From the IMG/VR virus record IMGVR_UViG_2925891887_000008: 38,557 bases of DNA, one strand, 5' to 3'. The number at the start of each line of letters is the position of its first letter. The stretch's first letter is position 1. Made by a program: the position numbers and the translations under genes. The notes under the pieces were generated by a model that made no database searches, was not told the origin of the DNA, and saw only the letters and a program-made list of their open reading frames with translations. This stretch comes from a virus. Lineage: Duplodnaviria > Heunggongvirae > Uroviricota > Caudoviricetes. Below, piece after piece: positions 10,970 through 38,557 of this stretch.

Positions 10970-12888
10970 TATGCAAACTCCTCGATAATACAAACCCCAT
11001 CAGCACCTTTCCCGCCCGTCATACTGGTTCCGCTATAACCTGCATCGTATGCACCACCTCCGCCTGAACCAAATGCCCTGCCTCTAACGCCACCGCCAGC
11101 GCCTGCGCGTCCACCGCCACCCCAGTACGATGTTCCGCCTTCACCGCTGACGCCGATATTTCCGGACTGACCGTCGCCTCCATCTCCACCAGTGATGCGG
11201 ATATCGCCAGTACTCGGCACACCTCCGTTACCGCCGTTTGTGTTTGTAACACCCACTTTCCCGCCACCTTCGCCACCAGGAGCAATTAACGATGCGAATA
11301 CGCTATTCCCGCCCCTGGTGCCGTTCGTTGCACTAACACCACCGGCCCCACCTGCGCCGATAGTGACTGGATAACTATTCTGTGTCGGGGTCATTATTGA
11401 AATTATTGTTCCACCGGCCCCACCGCCAGCACCGAAAAACGTTTCATTATTGGATGTAGCCTTGCAGCCGCCCCCTCCGCCACCGCCGCCCGTTATTGTG
11501 ACCCTGATCCGTTTTGTTTCTGGTGATGGGGTATACGTACCTGATGACGCGAAAGCCCGGGTACTCAGCCGGCGTCCCACGTATCCGCTTGTATCTCCCA
11601 AACCAAGATAACGAATAACCTCCTGTTTGCTTGTTTTAGCCAGAATATCCCGTCCAACATTAGTCAGGGTTGTCAGGCTGGCTGTATCATTCCCCGTAAA
11701 ATACGGTAGTTTGTCTGCCGCAGTGGCAAGGCCTGCCAGTGCGGTCAGTGTGGCGTCGGCAGGTTGTTTTCCATTGGCAAGGTCATATACAGCCTTCACA
11801 GCTTTTGGTGTGGCAGCCTGCGTTTCTGACGTGCTGTTAGTGGCGCTGCTGAGTTGCACGGTACCTTTTACCGTCAGTGAAGCTGCAGGCACATCCGTTA
11901 TCTGGCTCCACGGGTGCGTGTGACTGACAGGTGCCTTACCTGCTGCAAGGTCATATGCCGCCTTCACTGCCTTTGGTGTGGCAGCCTGCGTTTCTGACGT
12001 GCTGTTAGTGGCGCTGCTGAGTTGCACGGTGCCTTTTACCGTCAGTGAAGCTGCAGGCACATCCGTTATCTGATTCCACGGGTGTGTGTGACTGACAGGT
12101 GCCTTACCTGCTGCAAGGTCATATACAGCCTTCACTGCCTTTGGAGTGGCAGCCTGCGTTTCTGATGTGCTGTTAGTGGCGCTGCTGAGTTGCACGGTGC
12201 CTTTTACCGTCAGCGAGGCTGCAGGTACACCTGTTATCTGATTCCACGGGTGTGTGTGACTGGCGGATGCTTTACCTGCTGCAAGATCATATGCAGCCTT
12301 CACAGCCTTCGGTGTTGCGGCCAGTATTTCGGATTCACTGTTGGTCGCACTGCTTAACTGAGTAAAACCTTTTGCGGTCAGCGAGGCGTCCGGGTGACGT
12401 CGTGACTGTTCGTGCTCTGATATTTTGTCATCCACATACTTGCGGGTTGCCAGCACTACAGCAGGGTCGATTTTCAGGATGATATTGTCCGTACTGCTGG
12501 TAATCAGCACCATGCGCACGGTCTGGGTACGCCCACTGCCTTCAGCCAGTTGCGGCTTATAGCTTTCCGGGCAGTTACCCACGGCAATCAATGCCCCGGA
12601 CTCATCAAACAAGCCCACTTCACGTATCCACCAACCGCCCTCGTTTTCAGGGATCACCTGTTCAGCAATAATCTGGCTGCTGTTCTGCGGGTCGATATAA
12701 AGCATATTCAGCGCAGCCCGGCGTTTCTCATTTACCAGTGCCGTCTGCTTTGCGTCCGGCGTTGGCAATACTCCGCCGCCATCGCCCACCGCCATATGGG
12801 TAATTTTTAGCGGCACACCGAGCGCGGCGGCGCTGGCAAGTTTCGCCGCGCCAATATCCGTCAGCAGGGTATAAAATTTTGTGCTCAT
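10969..12888 (-). CDS. H: Tail fibre protein (P2 H-like N-terminus, internal 56-aa repeats, Gly-rich C-terminal domain)
   Basis: 639-aa ORF; N-terminus MSTKFYTLLTDIGAAKLA... is typical of P2-family H; the C-terminal roughly 170 aa are very Gly-rich. Confidence 0.85.
   Translation of the reverse strand: MSTKFYTLLTDIGAAKLASAAALGVPLKITHMAVGDGGGVLPTPDAKQTALVNEKRRAALNMLYIDPQNSSQIIAEQVIPENEGGWWIREVGLFDESGALIAVGNCPESYKPQLAEGSGRTQTVRMVLITSSTDNIILKIDPAVVLATRKYVDDKISEHEQSRRHPDASLTAKGFTQLSSATNSESEILAATPKAVKAAYDLAAGKASASHTHPWNQITGVPAASLTVKGTVQLSSATNSTSETQAATPKAVKAVYDLAAGKAPVSHTHPWNQITDVPAASLTVKGTVQLSSATNSTSETQAATPKAVKAAYDLAAGKAPVSHTHPWSQITDVPAASLTVKGTVQLSSATNSTSETQAATPKAVKAVYDLANGKQPADATLTALAGLATAADKLPYFTGNDTASLTTLTNVGRDILAKTSKQEVIRYLGLGDTSGYVGRRLSTRAFASSGTYTPSPETKRIRVTITGGGGGGGGCKATSNNETFFGAGGGAGGTIISIMTPTQNSYPVTIGAGGAGGVSATNGTRGGNSVFASLIAPGGEGGGKVGVTNTNGGNGGVPSTGDIRITGGDGGDGQSGNIGVSGEGGTSYWGGGGRAGAGGGVRGRAFGSGGGGAYDAGYSGTSMTGGKGADGVCIIEEFA
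11700..12390. repeat. Four tandem 168-bp (56-aa) in-frame repeats inside the tail fibre gene
   Basis: Repeat unit GGTCATAT(A/G)C(A/C)GCCTTCAC...GGCAGCCTGCGTTTCTGA recurs with period 168 bp at 11781, 11949, 12117 and, more degenerate, 12285. Confidence 0.8.
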
Positions 12889-14391: not shown

Positions 14392-14737
14392 TCTCTGCTC
14401 CTGTTGATACTGAAAGGGACACAGGCACACCGTTATTCCGCCGCCCGGTCAGCTCCACCACCATTGAACCGTCAAAATTGCTGTTAATAGTGATGGAATC
14501 CAGCGTCAGCCGTGGCTCCCAGCGACTCAGTGCCACATACACAGCCGACATAACCTGCAGGCGTAACGCCGGATTTTGTGGCTGATCTATCAGTGCCGAC
14601 AGCAGGGAACCATATTCCCGACGGGCAATGCGGCTACCCTGCGGCGTCAGCAGAATGTCCCGCACCGACTGGCGCAGATGGTCAATATCAGTAATGGCTT
14701 TACCGTTGGTATTGTTCATCCCGCTATAAAGCGTCAT
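14378..14737 (-). CDS. W: Baseplate protein W (gp25-like)
   Basis: 119-aa ORF between V and J. Confidence 0.8.
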   Translation of the reverse strand: MTLYSGMNNTNGKAITDIDHLRQSVRDILLTPQGSRIARREYGSLLSALIDQPQNPALRLQVMSAVYVALSRWEPRLTLDSITINSNFDGSMVVELTGRRNNGVPVSLSVSTGAENGSD

Positions 14738-15312
14738 ACCGGGCCTCCGGTTGTGTCGCCGCCTTTCAGGACGCCAGTATGCTGATGCGCATCAACCACG
14801 ATCCCGTTAGAACTCATTGCTCCGCCGCCCTGGGTAACGCCACCATTGATCACCACTTCGCTGTTAATGCGCGTGCGGTCAGCCTCCAGTACAAACTCAC
14901 TGGTTTTCATGGTGATGTTGTCAGCGGCCTCAATGACCATTGATTTGATGCCCCTGACATACCAGCGCCCGGTGGCGGGTTCATATTCAAACCAGCCACC
15001 GTCCGGGTATTCCGTCACGTTGCCGTCCTCAGAGCCTGAAGGTGGCGGAAACTGGTTTGAGTAGACCGCAGGCAGGGCAAACGCGGTTTCCAGATTGCCG
15101 CCAAGGCTGAACAGCACAACCTGCTCACCCACAGACGGTTTCCACCAGGTGCGCGATTTGCCCGCGCGCAGTGTCAGCCAGTTAATCCAGTTGGTTTCGA
15201 GGTCGCCAGTTTTCACCCGACACAGCCAGTTTGCCCTGTCCACTTCGGTGACTACACCTGTGCGGATCAGGTTGGTGATAAGGCGCATGATTTCGGTTAA
15301 TTGTGCGTTCAT
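14734..15312 (-). CDS. V: Baseplate spike protein V
   Basis: 192-aa ORF, first gene of the V-W-J-I-H operon. Confidence 0.85.
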   Translation of the reverse strand: MNAQLTEIMRLITNLIRTGVVTEVDRANWLCRVKTGDLETNWINWLTLRAGKSRTWWKPSVGEQVVLFSLGGNLETAFALPAVYSNQFPPPSGSEDGNVTEYPDGGWFEYEPATGRWYVRGIKSMVIEAADNITMKTSEFVLEADRTRINSEVVINGGVTQGGGAMSSNGIVVDAHQHTGVLKGGDTTGGPV

Positions 15313-16083
15313 AGGGAAAGGTTGCCATCAATAGCAAGCAGTAGACAGCCTTTGTAATTGTATTAGACATAGAACAAATGCCTTTCAATGGTCTGCGTTA
15401 GAGCATTAATACGTTGCAAAAGGTCGAATGACGTTGCGCAAGTTAAGAAGTTCAATGCTCTTAAAAAAGCACTTGAAAGCAACGCCTTTAATTATTAAAA
15501 GCCAATTAATTTAGGCGGTTACTATGTTATCTTTGACACAAAAGATGTTTATTGACAATATATAAGTTCAATCTAACAAGGAGAAAAATTATGCCAAATG
15601 AAAATCTTGATATTGACTCAAGGACTACCGAGCAATTATACGAATGGTATTTGCAAGGAAATTTGATAGTCAATAGACGTTATCAAAGGAAACTTGTATG
15701 GTCTCTAGAAGAAAAGACTTCTTTAATATCTTCTATGCTGCAACAATATCCTATTCCGTTATTATTATTTGTTACCATCAATGAACAAAGAGAAATATTG
15801 GATGGAATGCAAAGATTAGAAGCAATTATGAGCTTCATCGAACAGAGATTTTCATTAGATGGACAATATTTTGATTTGGACTCTATAGCTTTAACAAAAC
15901 AACTTAAAGATAATGGAACTTTAATTCAGAAAGAACCAATCCTTTCCCGTGATTCTTCAGCAATTATTGCACGTTATCGATTTGCAATATCAGAATATAG
16001 CTCCACAAATGAAAATATTGACGAAGTATTCAGACGAATAAACTCAAACGGGAAGATTTTATCCAAACAAGAATTACGTAGTG

Positions 16084-16092
16084 CAGGAACAG
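16084..16092. repeat. IS1 target-site duplication, left copy (CAGGAACAG)
   Basis: Identical 9-mer immediately flanks both IS1 ends. Confidence 0.85.
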
Positions 16093-16147
16093 GGTGATGC
16101 TGCCAACTTACTGATTTAGTGTATGATGGTGTTTTTGAGGTGCTCCA

Positions 16148-16423
16148 GTGGCTTCTGTTTCTATCAGCTGTCCCTCCTGTTCAGCTACTGACGGGGTGGT
16201 GCGTAACGGCAAAAGCACCGCCGGACATCAGCGCTATCTCTGCTCTCACTGCCGTAAAACATGGCAACTGCAGTTCACTTACACCGCTTCTCAACCCGGT
16301 ACGCACCAGAAAATCATTGATATGGCCATGAATGGCGTTGGATGCCGGGCAACCGCCCGCATTATGGGCGTTGGCCTCAACACGATTTTCCGCCATTTAA
16401 AAAACTCAGGCCGCAGTCGGTAA
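16148..16423 (+). CDS. insA: IS1 InsA
   Basis: 91-aa [26 protein letters not shown]... typical of InsA. Confidence 0.85.
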
Positions 16424-16845
16424 CCTCGCGCATACAGCCGGGCAGTGACGTCATCGTCTGCGCGGAAATGGACGAACAGTGGGGATACGTCGGGGCTAAA
16501 TCGCGCCAGCGCTGGCTGTTTTACGCGTATGACAGGCTCCGGAAGACGGTTGTTGCGCACGTATTCGGTGAACGCACTATGGCGACACTGGGGCGTCTTA
16601 TGAGCCTGCTGTCACCCTTTGACGTGGTGATATGGATGACGGATGGCTGGCCGCTGTATGAATCCCGCCTGAAGGGAAAGCTGCACGTAATCAGCAAGCG
16701 ATATACGCAGCGAATTGAGCGGCATAACCTGAATCTGAGGCAGCACCTGGCACGGCTGGGACGGAAGTCGCTGTCGTTCTCAAAATCGGTGGAGCTGCAT
16801 GACAAAGTCATCGGGCATTATCTGAACATAAAACACTATCAATAA
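16342..16845 (+). CDS. insB: IS1 InsB frame (expressed as InsAB' by -1 frameshift)
   Basis: -1-frame ORF overlapping the insA 3' end; slippery A6C at 16399-16405. Confidence 0.8.
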
Positions 16846-16860
16846 GTTGGAGTCATTACC

Positions 16861-16869
16861 CAGGAACAG
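16861..16869. repeat. IS1 target-site duplication, right copy (CAGGAACAG)
   Basis: Identical to 16084..16092. Confidence 0.85.
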
Positions 16870-18187
16870 TTAGTAACTTCTCTGAACTGGTCAGATCGAT
16901 ATCAACATCGATCAGAGGTGATACTAGCCATTCTGACATTATGAATCTCCAGCAAATGCACAAAATTTCAATCAGTAACGATAGATTGGAGTACGGGGTA
17001 AATATCGATAACCACTTTTATATAAAACATCATATTTTAACAAGACGAAGTATTCGTGATTCTGATGACGAGGAATTGATAGCCAATATCCTTGCATATA
17101 TCAGTCTAGAAGAAAAACCCACATCTGGGTCAACTTCTCTCGACACATTCTATGGTCAAGGAAACTCCTCTCATGCTCATGGTGTCAGACAGCAATTAGA
17201 GTCTTTCATTCAAACCAATAACGCTGCCACTATTAAGCAGAATTTCATAGCTGTATATGAATTAATTACAAGCCTATATGACGGAAAAAATGATACTTTT
17301 AGAAGCCATATTTTAGGGGAGGATAATTCATCTCAAGAATGCCCTCGTTATTATCAAGCTGTGTTTTTGTCTATTTATGAACTTCTTTTCAACCAAAATA
17401 TGCAATTAATTGATAAAGAAGGTTTATTCTCGCAATTAAAAAACACTGGCAATACCATAATTATGGTTACCGATGGTGGCCGCTGGGCTGCAAGCACTCG
17501 TGAAAAAAGTGTTAATGATCTTGTTGCATTAATAAGTCGTTACTTCCAACCTGCTCCTCAAAAGTATGTGAATCATGCTTGGGTAACTGAAATTCGCAAT
17601 CTATTAACAAATTCTAGAACTGAACAACCAAGTTATGATTTCAAACAAGGGTTCTTTAATTTATCAGGTAAAAATGAATTTGATGATGAATGTTTAAAAG
17701 GAATATTACAAACTTGCGTAGCAATAAATAATATTGGAAAAAGCGCAAAAGGCTATATTTTAGTTGGTATTGCCGAAAATAAATTAACCGCAGATAGAAT
17801 TCAACATTTATATGGAGTAAATTCAATTGAGTTCAATGGGTTCTATATAAACGGAATTGATCATGAAGCAATGTTAGTCTCTGGTAGCATTGATGATTAC
17901 TTTATGTTAATAAAACAAAAAATACAAGGATACAATTTCACTGAAACTCTAAAACAGCAGATACTTAAGAATATTGAGTTTTGCTCTTACAATGGCTTAC
18001 ACATACTCAAGATAACTATTCAGAGCACAGGTCAAATTTGCGACTTTGAGAATATGTTTTATATCAGACAAGGCTCATCGACTGATCCAGTTACGGATAC
18101 ACAAAAAATCTCAGCTCTATTTAACTCTTACATGAACAGCTAATCAATCGCCATCTCCACTGGAGCTGGCTTATGGATAAAAACAAA

Positions 18188-18226
18188 AGACGAGAGGGCT
18201 ATTTAAACCTCCTCGTCTTTATTTTG
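18188..18226. terminator. Hairpin plus T-tract between the convergent cargo gene and gene S
   Basis: AGACGAGAGGG / CCTCCTCGTCT inverted repeat followed by TTTATTTTG. Confidence 0.4.
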
Positions 18227-18665
18227 ATAGCTCCTCCTTTATGCTCATAATAATATTTTCTTCTGTTTTATAAGATAAGCCCAATAAAGTACGTTGCGGA
18301 TATTTCGCGATTAAACCTTTTTTATTTACCCGATCACGCAGGCCGTAATGGTGAACACGGGCAATACGCTGTACCATACCTTCAAACTGCACGCTGGCAG
18401 AATCGGCGCTGGCGGCAGTTTTCAGGTATTTTGTGGTGCGAAGCTTTGTAAACATCTGACGTTTGATGCGCCCCTTTTTACTACGTGCTGTTACCCTTCG
18501 CGGTTCATAGCTGCTGCCATCAGGATTACGCTGCATCCTGATGTTCTGCTGCTGTGTCCGGCGCAGTTCCTGCGCCAGCTGGCGCATCATGCGGCTTCTT
18601 GCGGCTGGCTCCAGATTCGCCAGCAAGGCACTCAGCCAGTCGTCCACCTTCTGCAATTCAGCCAC
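18219..18665 (-). CDS. S: Tail completion protein S
   Basis: 148-aa ORF following R in P2 order. Confidence 0.8.
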   Translation of the reverse strand: MAELQKVDDWLSALLANLEPAARSRMMRQLAQELRRTQQQNIRMQRNPDGSSYEPRRVTARSKKGRIKRQMFTKLRTTKYLKTAASADSASVQFEGMVQRIARVHHYGLRDRVNKKGLIAKYPQRTLLGLSYKTEENIIMSIKEELSK

Positions 18666-22816: not shown

Positions 22817-23650
22817 TCAGCAATTGGTCAGAGTGTCAGCGGGGGCGTTACCGCCTGTTGCACGCTGGCGGTAGTCCTGGCGGCTGTCTTCATGACTCAG
22901 CTTATCCACCAGTTCGTTAAAGGCGGCTTGTTGTGCCTGCAGGGCAGTCTCCAGCTCAGACAGACGTTCTTCCTGCTCAGACAGGGATTTTTCGGTGCGT
23001 GCGCTCAGGTTTTGCTGCTCAGTGGCGACCAGCTCCACGGCCTTATGCACATCAGAGAACCGGGCATCGTCGGACTGCTCTTTTTTGGTAAACAGCGCCG
23101 TGACACGGGCAAACAGGGAGGGTTTGTCATCCTGGATTTCTTCCAGTTCGATCACCGTTTCCTCTGCAGCGGTAAAGAGATTGGCAGGATTCTGCTTGCG
23201 GTTTGCCAGCGGGTTATGGGCTGCACTGGCGCTGAATGTCAGCATTTCAGAGCCCAGACTGGCAGGGTCATCAGTGGCAGCCAGGCCGACCAGGTAGGCT
23301 TTGCCCGTATCAGCAAACTTCGGGCTGACTTCCATAGAGGTGAATAATTTCTGGCCTTTTTTCACCAGCTCCACCAGTGATTCCGTTGGCTCAACGTCGG
23401 CATACAGCGCCATCTTGCCTGCCAGCGGACCTTCCGTGATTTCTTCAGCAAACAGCGCCGTCACCTTGCCGTAGCGGTTAAAGGTGCTGTCCGGCAGATA
23501 AGACTTGATGTGCTCAAGGTTAATCAGCGCGGTATACACCGCCGGGTTATAGCTGGCTGCCATCTGTTCCAGCCATTCACGCTGGATTTCGCGTCCGTCG
23601 GTGGTGGCACCTTCCACCCCGATGCGAAAACGCTTTGCTTTCACTGTCAT
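22817..23650 (-). CDS. O: Capsid scaffolding protein O
   Basis: 277-aa ORF with coiled-coil C-terminus, divergent from P. Confidence 0.85.
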   Translation of the reverse strand: MTVKAKRFRIGVEGATTDGREIQREWLEQMAASYNPAVYTALINLEHIKSYLPDSTFNRYGKVTALFAEEITEGPLAGKMALYADVEPTESLVELVKKGQKLFTSMEVSPKFADTGKAYLVGLAATDDPASLGSEMLTFSASAAHNPLANRKQNPANLFTAAEETVIELEEIQDDKPSLFARVTALFTKKEQSDDARFSDVHKAVELVATEQQNLSARTEKSLSEQEERLSELETALQAQQAAFNELVDKLSHEDSRQDYRQRATGGNAPADTLTNC

Positions 23651-26710: not shown

Positions 26711-27337
26711 ATGGATATCGAAAAGCTAAAAGAATTTTACGAAAAACTTTACTTTCAGGAAACGGAAAATAAAGACAAGATTTACAACAGAATTCAAATG
26801 ATATTTGGATTAATAGTAATCGACGCAACTATCGTAACATATCTGCTTAAAAACACATCCTTTGAAAATCATGCATTCTTTGCCTGCATTGTTATAGGAC
26901 TTTCATTATTATCAGTGTTTTTTATTTATAAAGCCTGCATGCTCCTAAAAAAAGCATTTTGGGGTAATGAATTCAAATACATTCCCAAACCTAAGGAAAT
27001 AGACGAATACTACAATGGCCTCATTAAATATGAAGCAGACTATAAAAAATATTGTGATAATAATGGGCTTACCTATAATGGTGAGCACTCATCAAGTAAA
27101 AAGTTCAATGAATACTTAGTAAAACAACTAGTAGAGTGTACTAGTTGGAATACTAAGAAAAATGAAATGAGAACAAGTCAAATATATCGAGCCACTAAAT
27201 TCTTTTTTTTCTCACTAATTCCATTAGTGATAGCGGTTGGCTTTTTTTTAGCGATGGATCTCGATTCAGCCTCGCCAAGGAAGACTAATGAGCCACATTT
27301 CATTATTATACCTGTAGATAATATCAGGAGATTATGA
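26711..27337 (+). CDS. AT-rich cargo membrane protein (208 aa, about three TM helices), unknown function
   Basis: RBS GGAG, ATG at 26711; hydrophobic segments at about residues 30-46, 55-73 and 164-182. Confidence 0.5.
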   Translation: MDIEKLKEFYEKLYFQETENKDKIYNRIQMIFGLIVIDATIVTYLLKNTSFENHAFFACIVIGLSLLSVFFIYKACMLLKKAFWGNEFKYIPKPKEIDEYYNGLIKYEADYKKYCDNNGLTYNGEHSSSKKFNEYLVKQLVECTSWNTKKNEMRTSQIYRATKFFFFSLIPLVIAVGFFLAMDLDSASPRKTNEPHFIIIPVDNIRRL

Positions 27338-28139: not shown

Positions 28140-28565
28140 ATGAAAAGCTTTTACGTATTAATTTTAATTCTGGTTGCAAGCTTTGTTAGCGTCCCAGTTC
28201 AGGCGGTAACAGCTAAAAACTATGAGAAAGGAACTAAAGCTCAACAGAAATCAATATCTTACCTTTCATGTGCATTCTATGGCAGTAGCACACAATTAGA
28301 TCCTAGCTACACGGAGCAAGTACCTACAGCCGATATCAAGATATTACAGAAAGCAGCTTACCACGCTTACAACGATGCGCTCTCATACTTTGGCTATGAG
28401 GAACCAGATCACGAACAACGCATAATTGATTATGCTGAATTTGTGGCGTCGCAAGAAGCTGTGTTATGGGATAAGCCGGGAATGAATGGAAAGCAGGTAA
28501 CACTAATTGCTCGTTCTCTCTACAATGAGAGTAACTGTAACTTGTTACTGGACTCAATTAAGTAG
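28140..28565 (+). CDS. AT-rich cargo secreted protein (141 aa, Sec signal peptide), unknown function
   Basis: RBS GAGGT, ATG at 28140; N-terminal hydrophobic signal with ...VQA/V cleavage-like site. Confidence 0.5.
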   Translation: MKSFYVLILILVASFVSVPVQAVTAKNYEKGTKAQQKSISYLSCAFYGSSTQLDPSYTEQVPTADIKILQKAAYHAYNDALSYFGYEEPDHEQRIIDYAEFVASQEAVLWDKPGMNGKQVTLIARSLYNESNCNLLLDSIK

Positions 28566-35425: not shown

Positions 35426-35433
35426 TTATACAT
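35426..35433. repeat. ISL3-family element target-site duplication, left copy (TTATACAT)
   Basis: Identical 8-mer flanks both ends of the element. Confidence 0.75.
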
Positions 35434-36748
35434 GGGTCTTCCCTTGTTGTGGTGGCTGAAGGCATGATAATGGTGTATTTAATCGCCAGAGGTCACCGCC
35501 ATGGACGAAAAGTCCCTCTACGCTCATATTCTCAACCTGTCCGATCCGTGGCAGGTAAAGTCCCTTTCTCTCGATGAAAATGCCGGTTCTGTTACTGTCA
35601 CTATTGAGATCGCTGAAAACACCCGGCTAGCCTGTCCGACCTGCGGTAAATCCTGTTCTGTTCACGATCACCGTCATCGTAAATGGCGCCATCTTGATAC
35701 CTGCCAGTTCACCACTATTGTTGAAGCCGATGTTCCACGAATTATGTGTCCGGAGCATGGCTGCCTGACGTTGCCTGTTCCGTGGGCTGGCCCCGGAAGC
35801 CGGTATACGTTGCTATTCGAATCGTTCGTTCTCTCATGGCTGAAAATCAGCACCGTTGATGCTGTCAGGAAGCAACTTAAGCTCAGTTGGAATGCGGTTG
35901 ACGGCATTATGACCCGGGCAGTTAAGCGAGGTCTTGCCCGGATAAAAAAGCCATTATCCGCCCGTCATATGAATGTGGATGAGGTCGCCTTTAAAAAAGG
36001 ACATCGTTACATAACGGTGATCTCCGATCGCGATGGTCGGGCGCTGGCCTTAACGGATGATCGCGGCACAGAGAGTCTTGCCGGCTATCTTCGCACGCTC
36101 ACTGATGGGCAGTTGCTGGCTATCAAAACGCTCTCAATGGACATGAACGCGGGCTATATAAGAGCAGCGCGTATCCACTTACCCAGTGCGGTTGAGAAAA
36201 TCGCCTTTGACCGCTTCCATGTGGCGAAGCAACTGGGCGAGGTAGTTGATAAAACCCGTCAGAATGAACATCCGCACCTCCCTGTTGAAAGCCGACACCA
36301 GGCAAAAGGAACCCGCTTCCTGTGGCAGTACAGCGATAAGTGGATGACCGAATCCCGGCAGGAAAAGCTGATGTGGCTGCGTGCACAGATGAAGCTGACG
36401 AGCCAGTGCTGGGCGCTGAAAGAGCTGGCAAAGGATATCTGGAACAGGCCATGGAGCGAGGAAAGACGGAGTGACTGGCAGAGATGGTTGGCGCTGGCGG
36501 CTAACAGTGACGTTCCCATGATGAAAAATGCCGCGAAAACGATAGGAAAAAGGCTGTACGGGATCCTGAATGCGATGCGACACAGTGTCTCAAACGGAAA
36601 TGCGGAGGCACTTAACAGCAAGATCAGGCTGCTGAGGATAAAAGCCAGGGGATACCGAAACCGGGAGCGCTTTAAACTGGGGGTGATGTTCCACTACGGA
36701 AAGCTGAATATGGCGTTCTGAGCCTTCCCACCATGATCGGGGAAGACC
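35434..36748 (+). mobile_element. ISL3-family insertion sequence (1315 bp)
   Basis: Imperfect terminal inverted repeats GGGTCTTCCC..TGGTGG at both ends, single transposase ORF, 8-bp duplication. Confidence 0.8.
35501..36721 (+). CDS. ISL3-family transposase
   Basis: 406-aa ORF with N-terminal zinc-ribbon-like CPTCG...CPEHGC and a DDE-like core. Confidence 0.8.
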   Translation: MDEKSLYAHILNLSDPWQVKSLSLDENAGSVTVTIEIAENTRLACPTCGKSCSVHDHRHRKWRHLDTCQFTTIVEADVPRIMCPEHGCLTLPVPWAGPGSRYTLLFESFVLSWLKISTVDAVRKQLKLSWNAVDGIMTRAVKRGLARIKKPLSARHMNVDEVAFKKGHRYITVISDRDGRALALTDDRGTESLAGYLRTLTDGQLLAIKTLSMDMNAGYIRAARIHLPSAVEKIAFDRFHVAKQLGEVVDKTRQNEHPHLPVESRHQAKGTRFLWQYSDKWMTESRQEKLMWLRAQMKLTSQCWALKELAKDIWNRPWSEERRSDWQRWLALAANSDVPMMKNAAKTIGKRLYGILNAMRHSVSNGNAEALNSKIRLLRIKARGYRNRERFKLGVMFHYGKLNMAF

Positions 36749-36756
36749 CTTATACA
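36749..36756. repeat. ISL3-family element target-site duplication, right copy (TTATACAT)
   Basis: Identical to 35426..35433. Confidence 0.75.
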
Positions 36757-36792
36757 TACAGTAAAAATGCTCTCTATTGGAGGGCATTTTTT

Positions 36793-37834: not shown

Positions 37835-38557
37835 ATGGTTAAGTTTTTGTTTCAATTCCCAATATTCGACTTCTCCTTAACATTTGATATTATCGAGACG
37901 TTAATCACTCATAGCGAATCATCAATCGCTAAGGGTATAGCAGAATATAAAGACAAAGGACCTGAAGAATATATAATTGAAATATCTCCGGAAGATGGTG
38001 TATATCAGTCAATTGATCATTACATGGGACTCACCAGCTCATCGCTAGATCTCGATGAAATGTTTTTAGAATACTACCCAAGTATTATCCGCAGGTCAGT
38101 ATTCTTAACTATATTCGGAATTTTTGAGCACGAAATAGAAAAATTCTGTAACAACTTTGCTAATAGACATCATTCTCCTATAAATGTTTCAGATCTCAAA
38201 GGAAGTGGATTTGAGAGGAGCCATCTATTTATCAAAAAAATGATAGGGATGAAGTCAACATCCCACTATTCGAATATCAAAAAAATAACAAAATTAAGAA
38301 ACAGTTGTGCGCATAATGATGCAAAATACTTAGAAAACGATGGGCAAAATATTAAAAGCATTATTGAACTTATAGAAAAATATCCTGATTTTTTTAAAAA
38401 AGATGGAAAACAGGTCCTATTTATGGAGGGCTCGTTAAGCATGATCTTGAACTCATTCAAAGAGTATCTTTCTGATGTTGAAAGAGCCTTAGATGAATTC
38501 GAAAAACAAAGCACTAGTGGCGACAAAGTGGCGGCAGCGGTTGGCATTACCCCGTAA
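37835..38557 (+). CDS. AT-rich cargo protein (240 aa) with Rx4H (HEPN-like) motif; candidate abortive-infection/toxin RNase
   Basis: ATG at 37835; motif KLRNSCAHND fits the RNxxxH HEPN signature; the ORF crosses the att core and ends in host-side DNA. Confidence 0.45.
   Translation: MVKFLFQFPIFDFSLTFDIIETLITHSESSIAKGIAEYKDKGPEEYIIEISPEDGVYQSIDHYMGLTSSSLDLDEMFLEYYPSIIRRSVFLTIFGIFEHEIEKFCNNFANRHHSPINVSDLKGSGFERSHLFIKKMIGMKSTSHYSNIKKITKLRNSCAHNDAKYLENDGQNIKSIIELIEKYPDFFKKDGKQVLFMEGSLSMILNSFKEYLSDVERALDEFEKQSTSGDKVAAAVGITP
38518..38539. repeat. Prophage attachment core, right copy (TGGCGACAAAGTGGCGGCAGCG)
   Basis: 21 of 22 identity with 3281..3302. Confidence 0.6.

Follow-up and report, generated by a model that had tools for sequence, protein, structure and literature searches.

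Prokaryotic Schlafen (Slfn) nucleases are defined by an Ex4(E/D)xK active-site motif, and DUF262 fusions account for 1.8% of them, according to a 2026 report (Nat Microbiol) in which the gene family was described as anti-phage (PMC13056530). In MG1655, the DUF262-Slfn fusion EcoSlfn7 from E. coli UC4224, expressed from its native promoter, lowered T7 plating approximately 540-fold and acted on a broad range of phages (PMC13056530). In the same host the gene, with that promoter, could be cloned and maintained on a medium-copy plasmid, and the available part of the report contains no toxicity assay for it (PMC13056530). Protection was conferred by 2 of the 7 Slfn constructs tested. RorSlfn5, an Ig-like fusion, cleaves the anticodon arm of tRNA when triggered by a phage protein; mechanism and trigger were worked out for RorSlfn5 and not for the DUF262 class (PMC13056530).

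DUF262 is also the N-terminal domain of the type IV enzymes GmrSD, BrxU and SspE, where it carries DGxQR-type motifs and is combined with a C-terminal DUF1524 His-Me/HNH nuclease, and it occurs in NsnA of the Menshen system, which has the partner genes NsnB and NsnC. The genomic position considered here has a precedent in phage P2, whose reference annotation places the non-essential orf30 (261 aa, 786 nt, function unknown) between S and V in antisense orientation. A survey listed a defence hotspot among the tail genes in P2-like phages and reported that in P2-like prophages both defence pseudogenes and transposable elements are rare (PMC13586616). IS1 favors AT-rich targets of 8-9 bp and mostly generates 9-bp duplications, and IS insertion into cas genes is a documented escape from harmful defence activity (PMC10359306).

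IS1 insertion in the cargo slot of a P2/186-like prophage

The window, a stretch of 38,557 nucleotides of viral DNA (IMGVR_UViG_2925891887_000008), contains a P2/186-like E. coli prophage located between ybjL and rcdA. The two ends of the prophage are marked by ogr and int, and the annotation shows an intact set of core genes. The slot is bordered on the left by gpV (baseplate assembly protein V; 14734-15312, minus strand), which opens the late V operon, and on the right by gpS (virion morphogenesis/tail completion; 18219-18665, minus strand), the last gene of the preceding late operon. The split gene is the only plus-strand gene between them, antisense to both late operons, and its G+C content is 33% versus 51% for the window. 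It was first described as prophage cargo, and it does sit in the P2 orf30 slot: the position between S and V, the antisense orientation and the low G+C are all shared, while the cargo itself differs from orf30. An AT-rich intergenic leader (15313-15590, plus strand) lies upstream, with a GGAG ribosome-binding site at 15580-15583, and presumably holds the gene's own promoter. A promoter/terminator scan returned 9 sites against 9.2 expected, with no convincing promoter in the leader. Deposited phage genomes contained no close relative, only remote DUF262 matches with coverage of at most 39%, and thus the gene is known only from prophages and plasmids in the collections searched.

The 5' part of the gene (15591-16092, plus strand) comprises codons 1-167 and the first base of codon 168, and ends with the left copy of a 9-bp target-site duplication, CAGGAACAG (16084-16092), corresponding to nt 494-502 of the intact gene. 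A complete 768-bp IS1 of the IS1B type follows at 16093-16860 on the plus strand, in the same orientation as the split gene, and is the only IS1 copy in the window. The right copy of CAGGAACAG occupies 16861-16869, and the 3' part of the gene (16870-18143, plus strand) runs from the rest of codon 168 to codon 591 and the stop. Sequence reading and a script placed GGTGATGCTGCCAACTTACTGAT at the 5' end of the element and ATCAATAAGTTGGAGTCATTACC at its 3' end; the termini are imperfect inverted repeats of about 23 bp that match at 18 of 23 positions, and the IS1 terminal inverted repeat form GGTGATGCTGCC.../GGTAATGACTCC... fits the element. The insA gene (16148-16423) matched Pfam Zn_ribbon_InsA (3e-21) and HTH_Tnp_IS1 (1.7e-30), the insB' frame (16342-16845) matched DDE_Tnp_IS1 (2.3e-78), and the two are joined by the A6C -1 frameshift site TTAAAAAAC at 16397. 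The IS1 profile matches were Pfam PF03811, PF12759 and PF03400, together with NCBIfam NF033558 (transpos_IS1). Identity to plasmid-borne IS1 copies was 99.7-99.8%.

IS1 insertion with a 9-bp target-site duplication was reportedly described by Grindley in 1978. The direct duplication found here, 9 bp, is within the 8- or 9-bp norm for IS1, and the chance of a given 9-mer repeating at the exact opposite boundary is 4^-9 = 4e-6. The element thus resembles known IS1 inactivations in its 768-bp length, InsA/InsAB' products, A6C frameshift, 9-bp duplication and AT-rich target region. Since CAGGAACAG itself is 56% G+C, the argument from AT preference covers the region and not the duplicated nonamer.

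We then repaired the gene in silico by joining 15591-16092 to 16870-18143. The result was 1776 nt long, with 591 codons and one terminal stop, in place of the split products of 168 codons (stub) and 400 codons (ORF), and the repaired junction read ...KQELRSAGT-VSNFSELVRS...MNLQQMHKISI.... However, the frames join whether 0, 1 or 2 copies of the duplication are removed. Since 9 bp is a multiple of 3, frame joining alone is a weak test; it was therefore rejected as proof, and identity with an intact allele was used instead. The repaired gene showed 0/1776 nt mismatches to the intact gene of CRE10 (WP_001132405.1). Several statements of the initial annotation were confirmed in this way: its coordinates for IS1 and the flanking copies of CAGGAACAG were exact, excision of the duplication gave the continuous ORF and the junction it had predicted, both ORFs belong to a single gene that was cut in two, and its ancestral frame can be restored exactly.

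Architecture of the repaired protein

Pfam placed two domains in the repaired protein, GmrSD_N/DUF262 (PF03235) at aa 26-165 (1.7e-17) and SLFN_AlbA_2 (PF04326) at aa 419-575 (5e-06; 27.5 bits against a gathering cut-off of 25.3 bits). Pfam gave no DUF1524 match at E <= 0.1, and no NCBIfam family matched the protein. The DUF262-Slfn fusion is readable in the window only after in-silico removal of IS1, and is intact in 25-26 other genomes. A database search returned 1,756 homologues, mostly full length (~590-600 aa), from Proteobacteria and Cyanobacteria, including Enterobacterales, Vibrio, Pseudomonas and others; PF04326 was precomputed for about half of the homologues listed. Among 30 homologues with 37-88% identity, the DUF262 motifs NRRYQRK (28-34), DGMQR (71-75) and FRRIN (147-151) were invariant, and so was a catalytic-type motif, E419-x4-D424-x-K426 (E419-QPSY-D424-F-K426; nt 17622-17645).

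The AlphaFold model of the repaired protein had a pLDDT of 88.5 and a pTM of 0.86. Residues 141-170, the stretch where IS1 entered, formed a block with pLDDT values of 60-73. In Foldseek the N-terminal domain matched BrxU, SspE and ParB/Noc CTPases, and the C-terminal domain matched the tRNase/DNA-binding domain of SAMD9, DIP2311 (3lmm) and SLFN5/11/13/14. The SAMD9 matches (7ksp and 9o0d) had a probability of 1.00 with a TM on target of 0.41-0.48, and E-values for the C-terminal matches with the full-length query were modest (7e-3 to 0.3). A sequence search of the PDB returned the DUF262 stretch of BrxU as its sole match (2.4e-05), and among PDB structures the Slfn domain was seen only by fold. 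BrxU was the best PDB match by both sequence profile and fold.

Judged from these profiles and the predicted structure, the protein is a DUF262-Schlafen fusion and not a GmrSD enzyme. The N-terminal DUF262 with its DGxQR-type motifs is shared with GmrSD, BrxU and SspE, but a Schlafen/AlbA_2 domain stands where those enzymes carry their nuclease. The RefSeq name of the intact protein is 'GmrSD domain-containing'; a restriction enzyme for modified DNA of the GmrSD type was rejected for lack of the DUF1524 domain, and with a Schlafen/AlbA_2 effector at the C-terminus the substrate is likely RNA instead of modified DNA. The best PADLOC matches, NsnA of Menshen (3.2e-23) and PD-T4-2_A, covered the N-terminal part only. 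Residues 9-348 aligned to positions 49-334 of the NsnA profile, which amounts to DUF262 and part of the helical middle region, whereas the C-terminal third was unrelated and NsnA has no Slfn domain. The partner genes NsnB and NsnC are absent here, the neighbors being gpV and gpS on the opposite strand, and a Menshen system was rejected because the cargo gene has no partner genes.

The protein resembles EcoSlfn7, which has the same architecture, an N-terminal DUF262 and a C-terminal Slfn/AlbA_2 domain with Ex4(E/D)xK, and is likewise encoded by a single gene with its own promoter on a mobile element in Enterobacterales (PMC13056530). The label 'defence gene' given in the initial annotation is supported by analogy, in that the architecture matches a family with anti-phage activity demonstrated in that report (PMC13056530), and for this protein defence is a prediction. 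The cargo gene would then be a single-gene anti-phage defence module encoding a 591-aa fusion. Its N-terminal DUF262, with a ParB-like, NTP-binding fold, is presumed to act as sensor or regulator, and the helical middle region would lead to a C-terminal Schlafen/AlbA_2 nuclease as the presumed effector. By analogy with characterised bacterial and human Schlafens, the sensing of an infection would lead this effector to cut tRNA.

Distribution of the intact gene and the cause of the insertion

The two halves of the gene served as separate queries against 5,426 complete E. coli genomes, and both matched the same 27 chromosomes. The initial annotation had proposed a comparison with strains lacking IS1 at this site, and the site was found empty in 26 of the 27 carriers, with a single copy of CAGGAACAG and half-matches overlapping by exactly 9 bp. 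The remaining carrier, NZ_CP195467.1 (strain 22AR0322; New Zealand, human screening swab), has IS1 at the site with half-matches 768 bp apart, and a junction-spanning query was fully covered in this genome only. The gene was free of any indel in 25/27 carriers and 100% identical to the repaired gene in 12/27. In P276M several small indels lying close together shorten the product to 461 aa, which is possibly an assembly error, the prophage there being degraded. The near-identical prophage copies come from unrelated hosts in many countries.

In RefSeq, PGAP labels this locus of 22AR0322 'DUF262 domain-containing protein, pseudogene, missing C-terminus', followed by IS1B ('IS1-like element IS1B family transposase, programmed frameshift'; WP_095033700.1) and a 'hypothetical protein'. 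Compared with NZ_CP195467.1, the window shows a SNP at 23251, lacks 9 bp after 27528 and has gained an ISKox3 of 1316 bp (35434-36749), and therefore represents a separate assembly of a sister isolate. Since the insertion is common to two related isolates, it is real and inherited. The gene has accumulated 0 substitutions since IS1 inserted, as judged against the intact CRE10 allele. The event is a recent one and is limited to a single lineage.

In complete E. coli genomes the gene occurred in two variants only, the prophage allele (27 genomes) and an IncF-plasmid paralogue. The paralogue (WP_001262767.1; 590 aa, 33% G+C) adjoins repA-pemIK and shares ~69% nucleotide identity with the prophage allele (protein 66% identical). 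At least 80% of the gene was present in 105 of the 802 genomes carrying any part of it. One IS1 lies at nt 1036-1043 with an 8-bp duplication, and a second IS1 site is at nt 1276-1284, where the 9-bp AAACAGGGA borders the N-fragment plus IS1 and the IS1 plus C-fragment on different plasmids. ISKpn26 and ISVsa5 also interrupt the paralogue, which adjoins the IS-rich resistance region of IncF plasmids. Because the same AAACAGGGA stands at both types of fragment, one old IS1 event is likely behind most of them, and a single old event in an IS-rich region would make the high frequency of fragments largely hitch-hiking. The repeated IS interruption of this paralogue could, on the other hand, hint at selection for loss. 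UC4224, the source of EcoSlfn7, was found neither among the 27 carriers of the prophage allele nor among the top 60 for the paralogue; the plasmid paralogue (66% identical), and not the prophage protein, may be EcoSlfn7.

We consider chance combined with target bias the best explanation of the insertion, and a probable one: a recent, ordinary IS1 transposition into AT-rich defence cargo that left a null allele. A resident IS1 would recently have moved into an AT-rich accessory gene of the P2/186-like prophage, duplicated 9 bp of its target and made a null allele, and an IS-rich lineage together with a target of 33% G+C would be cause enough, selection against the gene being unnecessary and the event plausibly neutral. 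The chromosome of 22AR0322 contains 14 places matching IS1, the copy in the cargo gene included. The window isolate has the extra ISKox3, an ISL3-family element with the 8-bp duplication TTATACAT, 43 bp upstream of the int start in the same prophage. Together these indicate an IS-active lineage. The rarity of transposable elements and defence pseudogenes in P2-like prophages makes a chance event somewhat less expected (PMC13586616).

Adaptive loss is the principal alternative, in which cost, autoimmunity or a clash of the nuclease with something else in the strain (a plasmid, another prophage or a modified-DNA element) would have led to selection of IS1 knock-outs. We regard it as unlikely. 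The precedent of the cas genes (PMC10359306) speaks for it, in that the victim there too is a defence gene and the mechanism is the same, but the victim here is a Schlafen-type gene in a P2-like prophage, and a selective pressure of the self-targeting type is not evident. Triggered Schlafen effectors are toxic, yet a DUF262-Slfn gene driven by its native promoter could be kept on a medium-copy plasmid, where it conferred defence (PMC13056530). The independent interruptions of the IncF paralogue, by IS1 at two sites and by ISKpn26 and ISVsa5, would also fit adaptive loss, as would its low rate of completeness, the truncated P276M allele and the general scarcity of defence pseudogenes in P2 (PMC13586616). 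Against this, the plasmid fragments mostly go back to the one old, largely hitch-hiking event proposed above, and the prophage gene and the paralogue share the low G+C that IS1 prefers (PMC10359306). Moreover, 25-26 of the 27 prophage copies are intact and scarcely differ from one another in unrelated hosts from many countries, the insertion was a single event in one lineage, and the invariant catalytic and NTP-binding-type motifs of distant homologues show purifying selection on the family. The suggestion in the initial annotation of selection against a toxic or costly gene was thus left unsupported, given 26/27 carriers without the IS, an IS-active lineage and a target of 33% G+C.

Products of the split gene and meaning of its loss

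The stub now reads ...SAGTG* (M1-T167 plus Gly, 168 aa), with its stop at 16095-16097 inside the IS1 end. The 5' part holds almost the whole DUF262/GmrSD_N domain (aa 26-165), and the central helical region lies with the Schlafen/AlbA_2 domain in the 3' part. The 400-aa ORF starts at an internal ATG at 16941 (M192), and the 'hypothetical protein' of PGAP, 395 aa long, begins at M197 (16956). IS1 insertions classically have a strong polar effect. The insertion, placed after codon 167, would interrupt a linker that is modelled with low confidence and directly follows the DUF262 core; the native promoter would yield only the 168-aa DUF262 stub, and the nuclease-bearing 3' part would be left behind a 768-bp IS1 with no ribosome-binding site of its own. 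The proposal that IS1 has inactivated the cargo gene thus agrees with a frame broken after codon 167; as read from the sequence, the defence function is most probably lost and the allele null. Either fragment may retain some residual activity.

A different outcome would be a new function for the pieces, with the DUF262 stub serving as a decoy or dominant-negative regulator, or with an unregulated Schlafen fragment made by read-through from IS1. The break lies in a predicted flexible linker (the block with pLDDT 60-73) so that both parts are whole domains, and the 400-aa ORF remains open. But inspection by eye found no Shine-Dalgarno sequence before the ATG at 16941 or 16956, and a promoter scan found no promoter-like site between the IS1 end and the 3' ORF. 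The polarity of IS1, the restriction of the arrangement to a single lineage and the harm expected from an unregulated nuclease further weigh against such a gain, which we consider highly improbable. Finally, the chance that a repeat-collapsing assembler mis-placed IS1 in the gene, or that the annotation erred, is negligible, for although IS1 matches 14 places in the sister chromosome and multicopy elements are a classic cause of mis-joins, the full-length element is flanked by a perfect 9-bp target duplication, and the independently assembled and non-identical NZ_CP195467.1, a closed chromosome, carries the same insertion with identical junctions.

The event is therefore an ordinary IS1 pseudogenisation of a kind already known and already annotated in RefSeq. 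It is quite doubtful that DUF262-Schlafen genes are recurrently and selectively knocked out by ISs in Enterobacteriaceae owing to a standing cost or a conflict with other mobile elements; were this so, the family would be a natural model for the shedding of tRNase-type immunity, and the locus would depart from the reported rule, by which defence cargo in P2 is replaced and does not become a pseudogene. The database name is corrected from 'GmrSD domain-containing' to a Schlafen fusion without the GmrSD nuclease. The locus provides a natural, exactly revertible pair of null and wild-type forms of a DUF262-Schlafen gene within the prophage that natively carries it, and a further 25 sequenced strains can supply the intact allele. 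Together with the fragmented IncF paralogue, it offers a test case for whether P2-like phages and plasmids lose their defence genes through decay or through swapping alone.

A second non-intact prophage allele and the fragmented paralogue of IncF plasmids

Besides the IS1-split allele, the only prophage allele that was not intact was that of E. coli P276M (NZ_CP044293.1; L008:1008-2800, in the prophage locus of that strain). It carried 9 small indels and several mismatches within approximately 190 nt (gene nt ~1330-1520), and the protein was cut to 461 aa, breaking off within the Schlafen domain. Degradation extended to the prophage around it, where a partial tape-measure gene abutted gpV. The damage to the P276M allele could be real decay or a long-read assembly error.

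The paralogue on IncF plasmids, WP_001262767.1 (590 aa, 33% G+C, 66% identical to the prophage protein), adjoins repA-pemIK. Of the 5,426 E. coli genomes, 802 carried it, as did 1,463 plasmid records. Most of its copies were fragmented. Among the plasmid loci, an intact copy was present at L006:4001-5773, and broken copies at L003:3001-5549, L004:3001-4311, and L005:3001-3495. IS1 had entered the paralogue independently at two sites, nt 1036-1043 and nt 1276-1284; ISKpn26 and ISVsa5 interrupted it as well. Fragments of this paralogue also appear in the databases: a 500-aa cluster of 1,685 members named "AlbA family DNA-binding domain-containing protein", and a 336-aa "DUF262" protein whose C-terminal GDAANLLI is encoded by IS1.

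Other cargo, the tail-fibre gene, and the flanking host gene

The classical P2 old/tin hotspot, between the portal gene gpQ and the replication gene, held low-G+C ORFs of unknown function (window 26711-27337 and 28140-28565) with a small pseudogene between them. Their products are 208 and 141 aa, respectively; the former gave a weak PADLOC match to "2TM effector" (2e-4), and the latter has a hydrophobic N-terminus that by eye resembles a signal peptide and had no family match. A further low-G+C ORF of 240 aa (window 37835-38557) lies directly past the integrase at the prophage edge, adjoining rcdA, with faint HEPN-like matches (Pfam HEPN_RiboL-PSP, 5.5e-3; PADLOC HEC-01A and RTasHEPN, ~5e-3). 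The int-att interval in which it is placed is a minor defence hotspot of P2 (PMC13586616).

Off-diagonal BLAST hits between the window and related loci revealed internal direct repeats in the tail-fibre gene (window 11777-12354), which are ~90% identical at an offset of 168 bp. The sister genome has nfsA, a nitroreductase gene, beside the prophage (L001:1983-2705, immediately to the left of where the window begins); its annotation records an internal stop and classes it as a pseudogene. Nitrofuran resistance usually arises through inactivation of nfsA.

Differences from the sister genome and an ISKox3 insertion beside the integrase

The window differed from the sister genome NZ_CP195467.1 by a single SNP (position 23251, A versus T) and by the absence of 9 bp (CCGCCTCAG) after 27528, within the cargo region from gpQ to the replication genes. 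The window therefore represents a sister isolate outside the complete-genome collection.

A second insertion sequence of the same prophage, an ISL3-family element of 1316 bp (window 35434-36749), was named ISKox3 after the RefSeq annotation of near-identical copies. It has terminal sequences GGGTCTTCCC/GGGAAGACCC, is flanked by an 8-bp duplication, TTATACAT (35426-35433 and 36750-36757), and encodes a 406-aa transposase (window 35501-36721). The corresponding site in NZ_CP195467.1 was empty. Since ISKox3 adjoined a phage integrase at apparently the same place in 7 other E. coli genomes, this may be a site-specific hotspot or a module spread through recombination. The ATG of the prophage integrase (36793) is 43 bp downstream of ISKox3, and the insertion probably impairs int expression.
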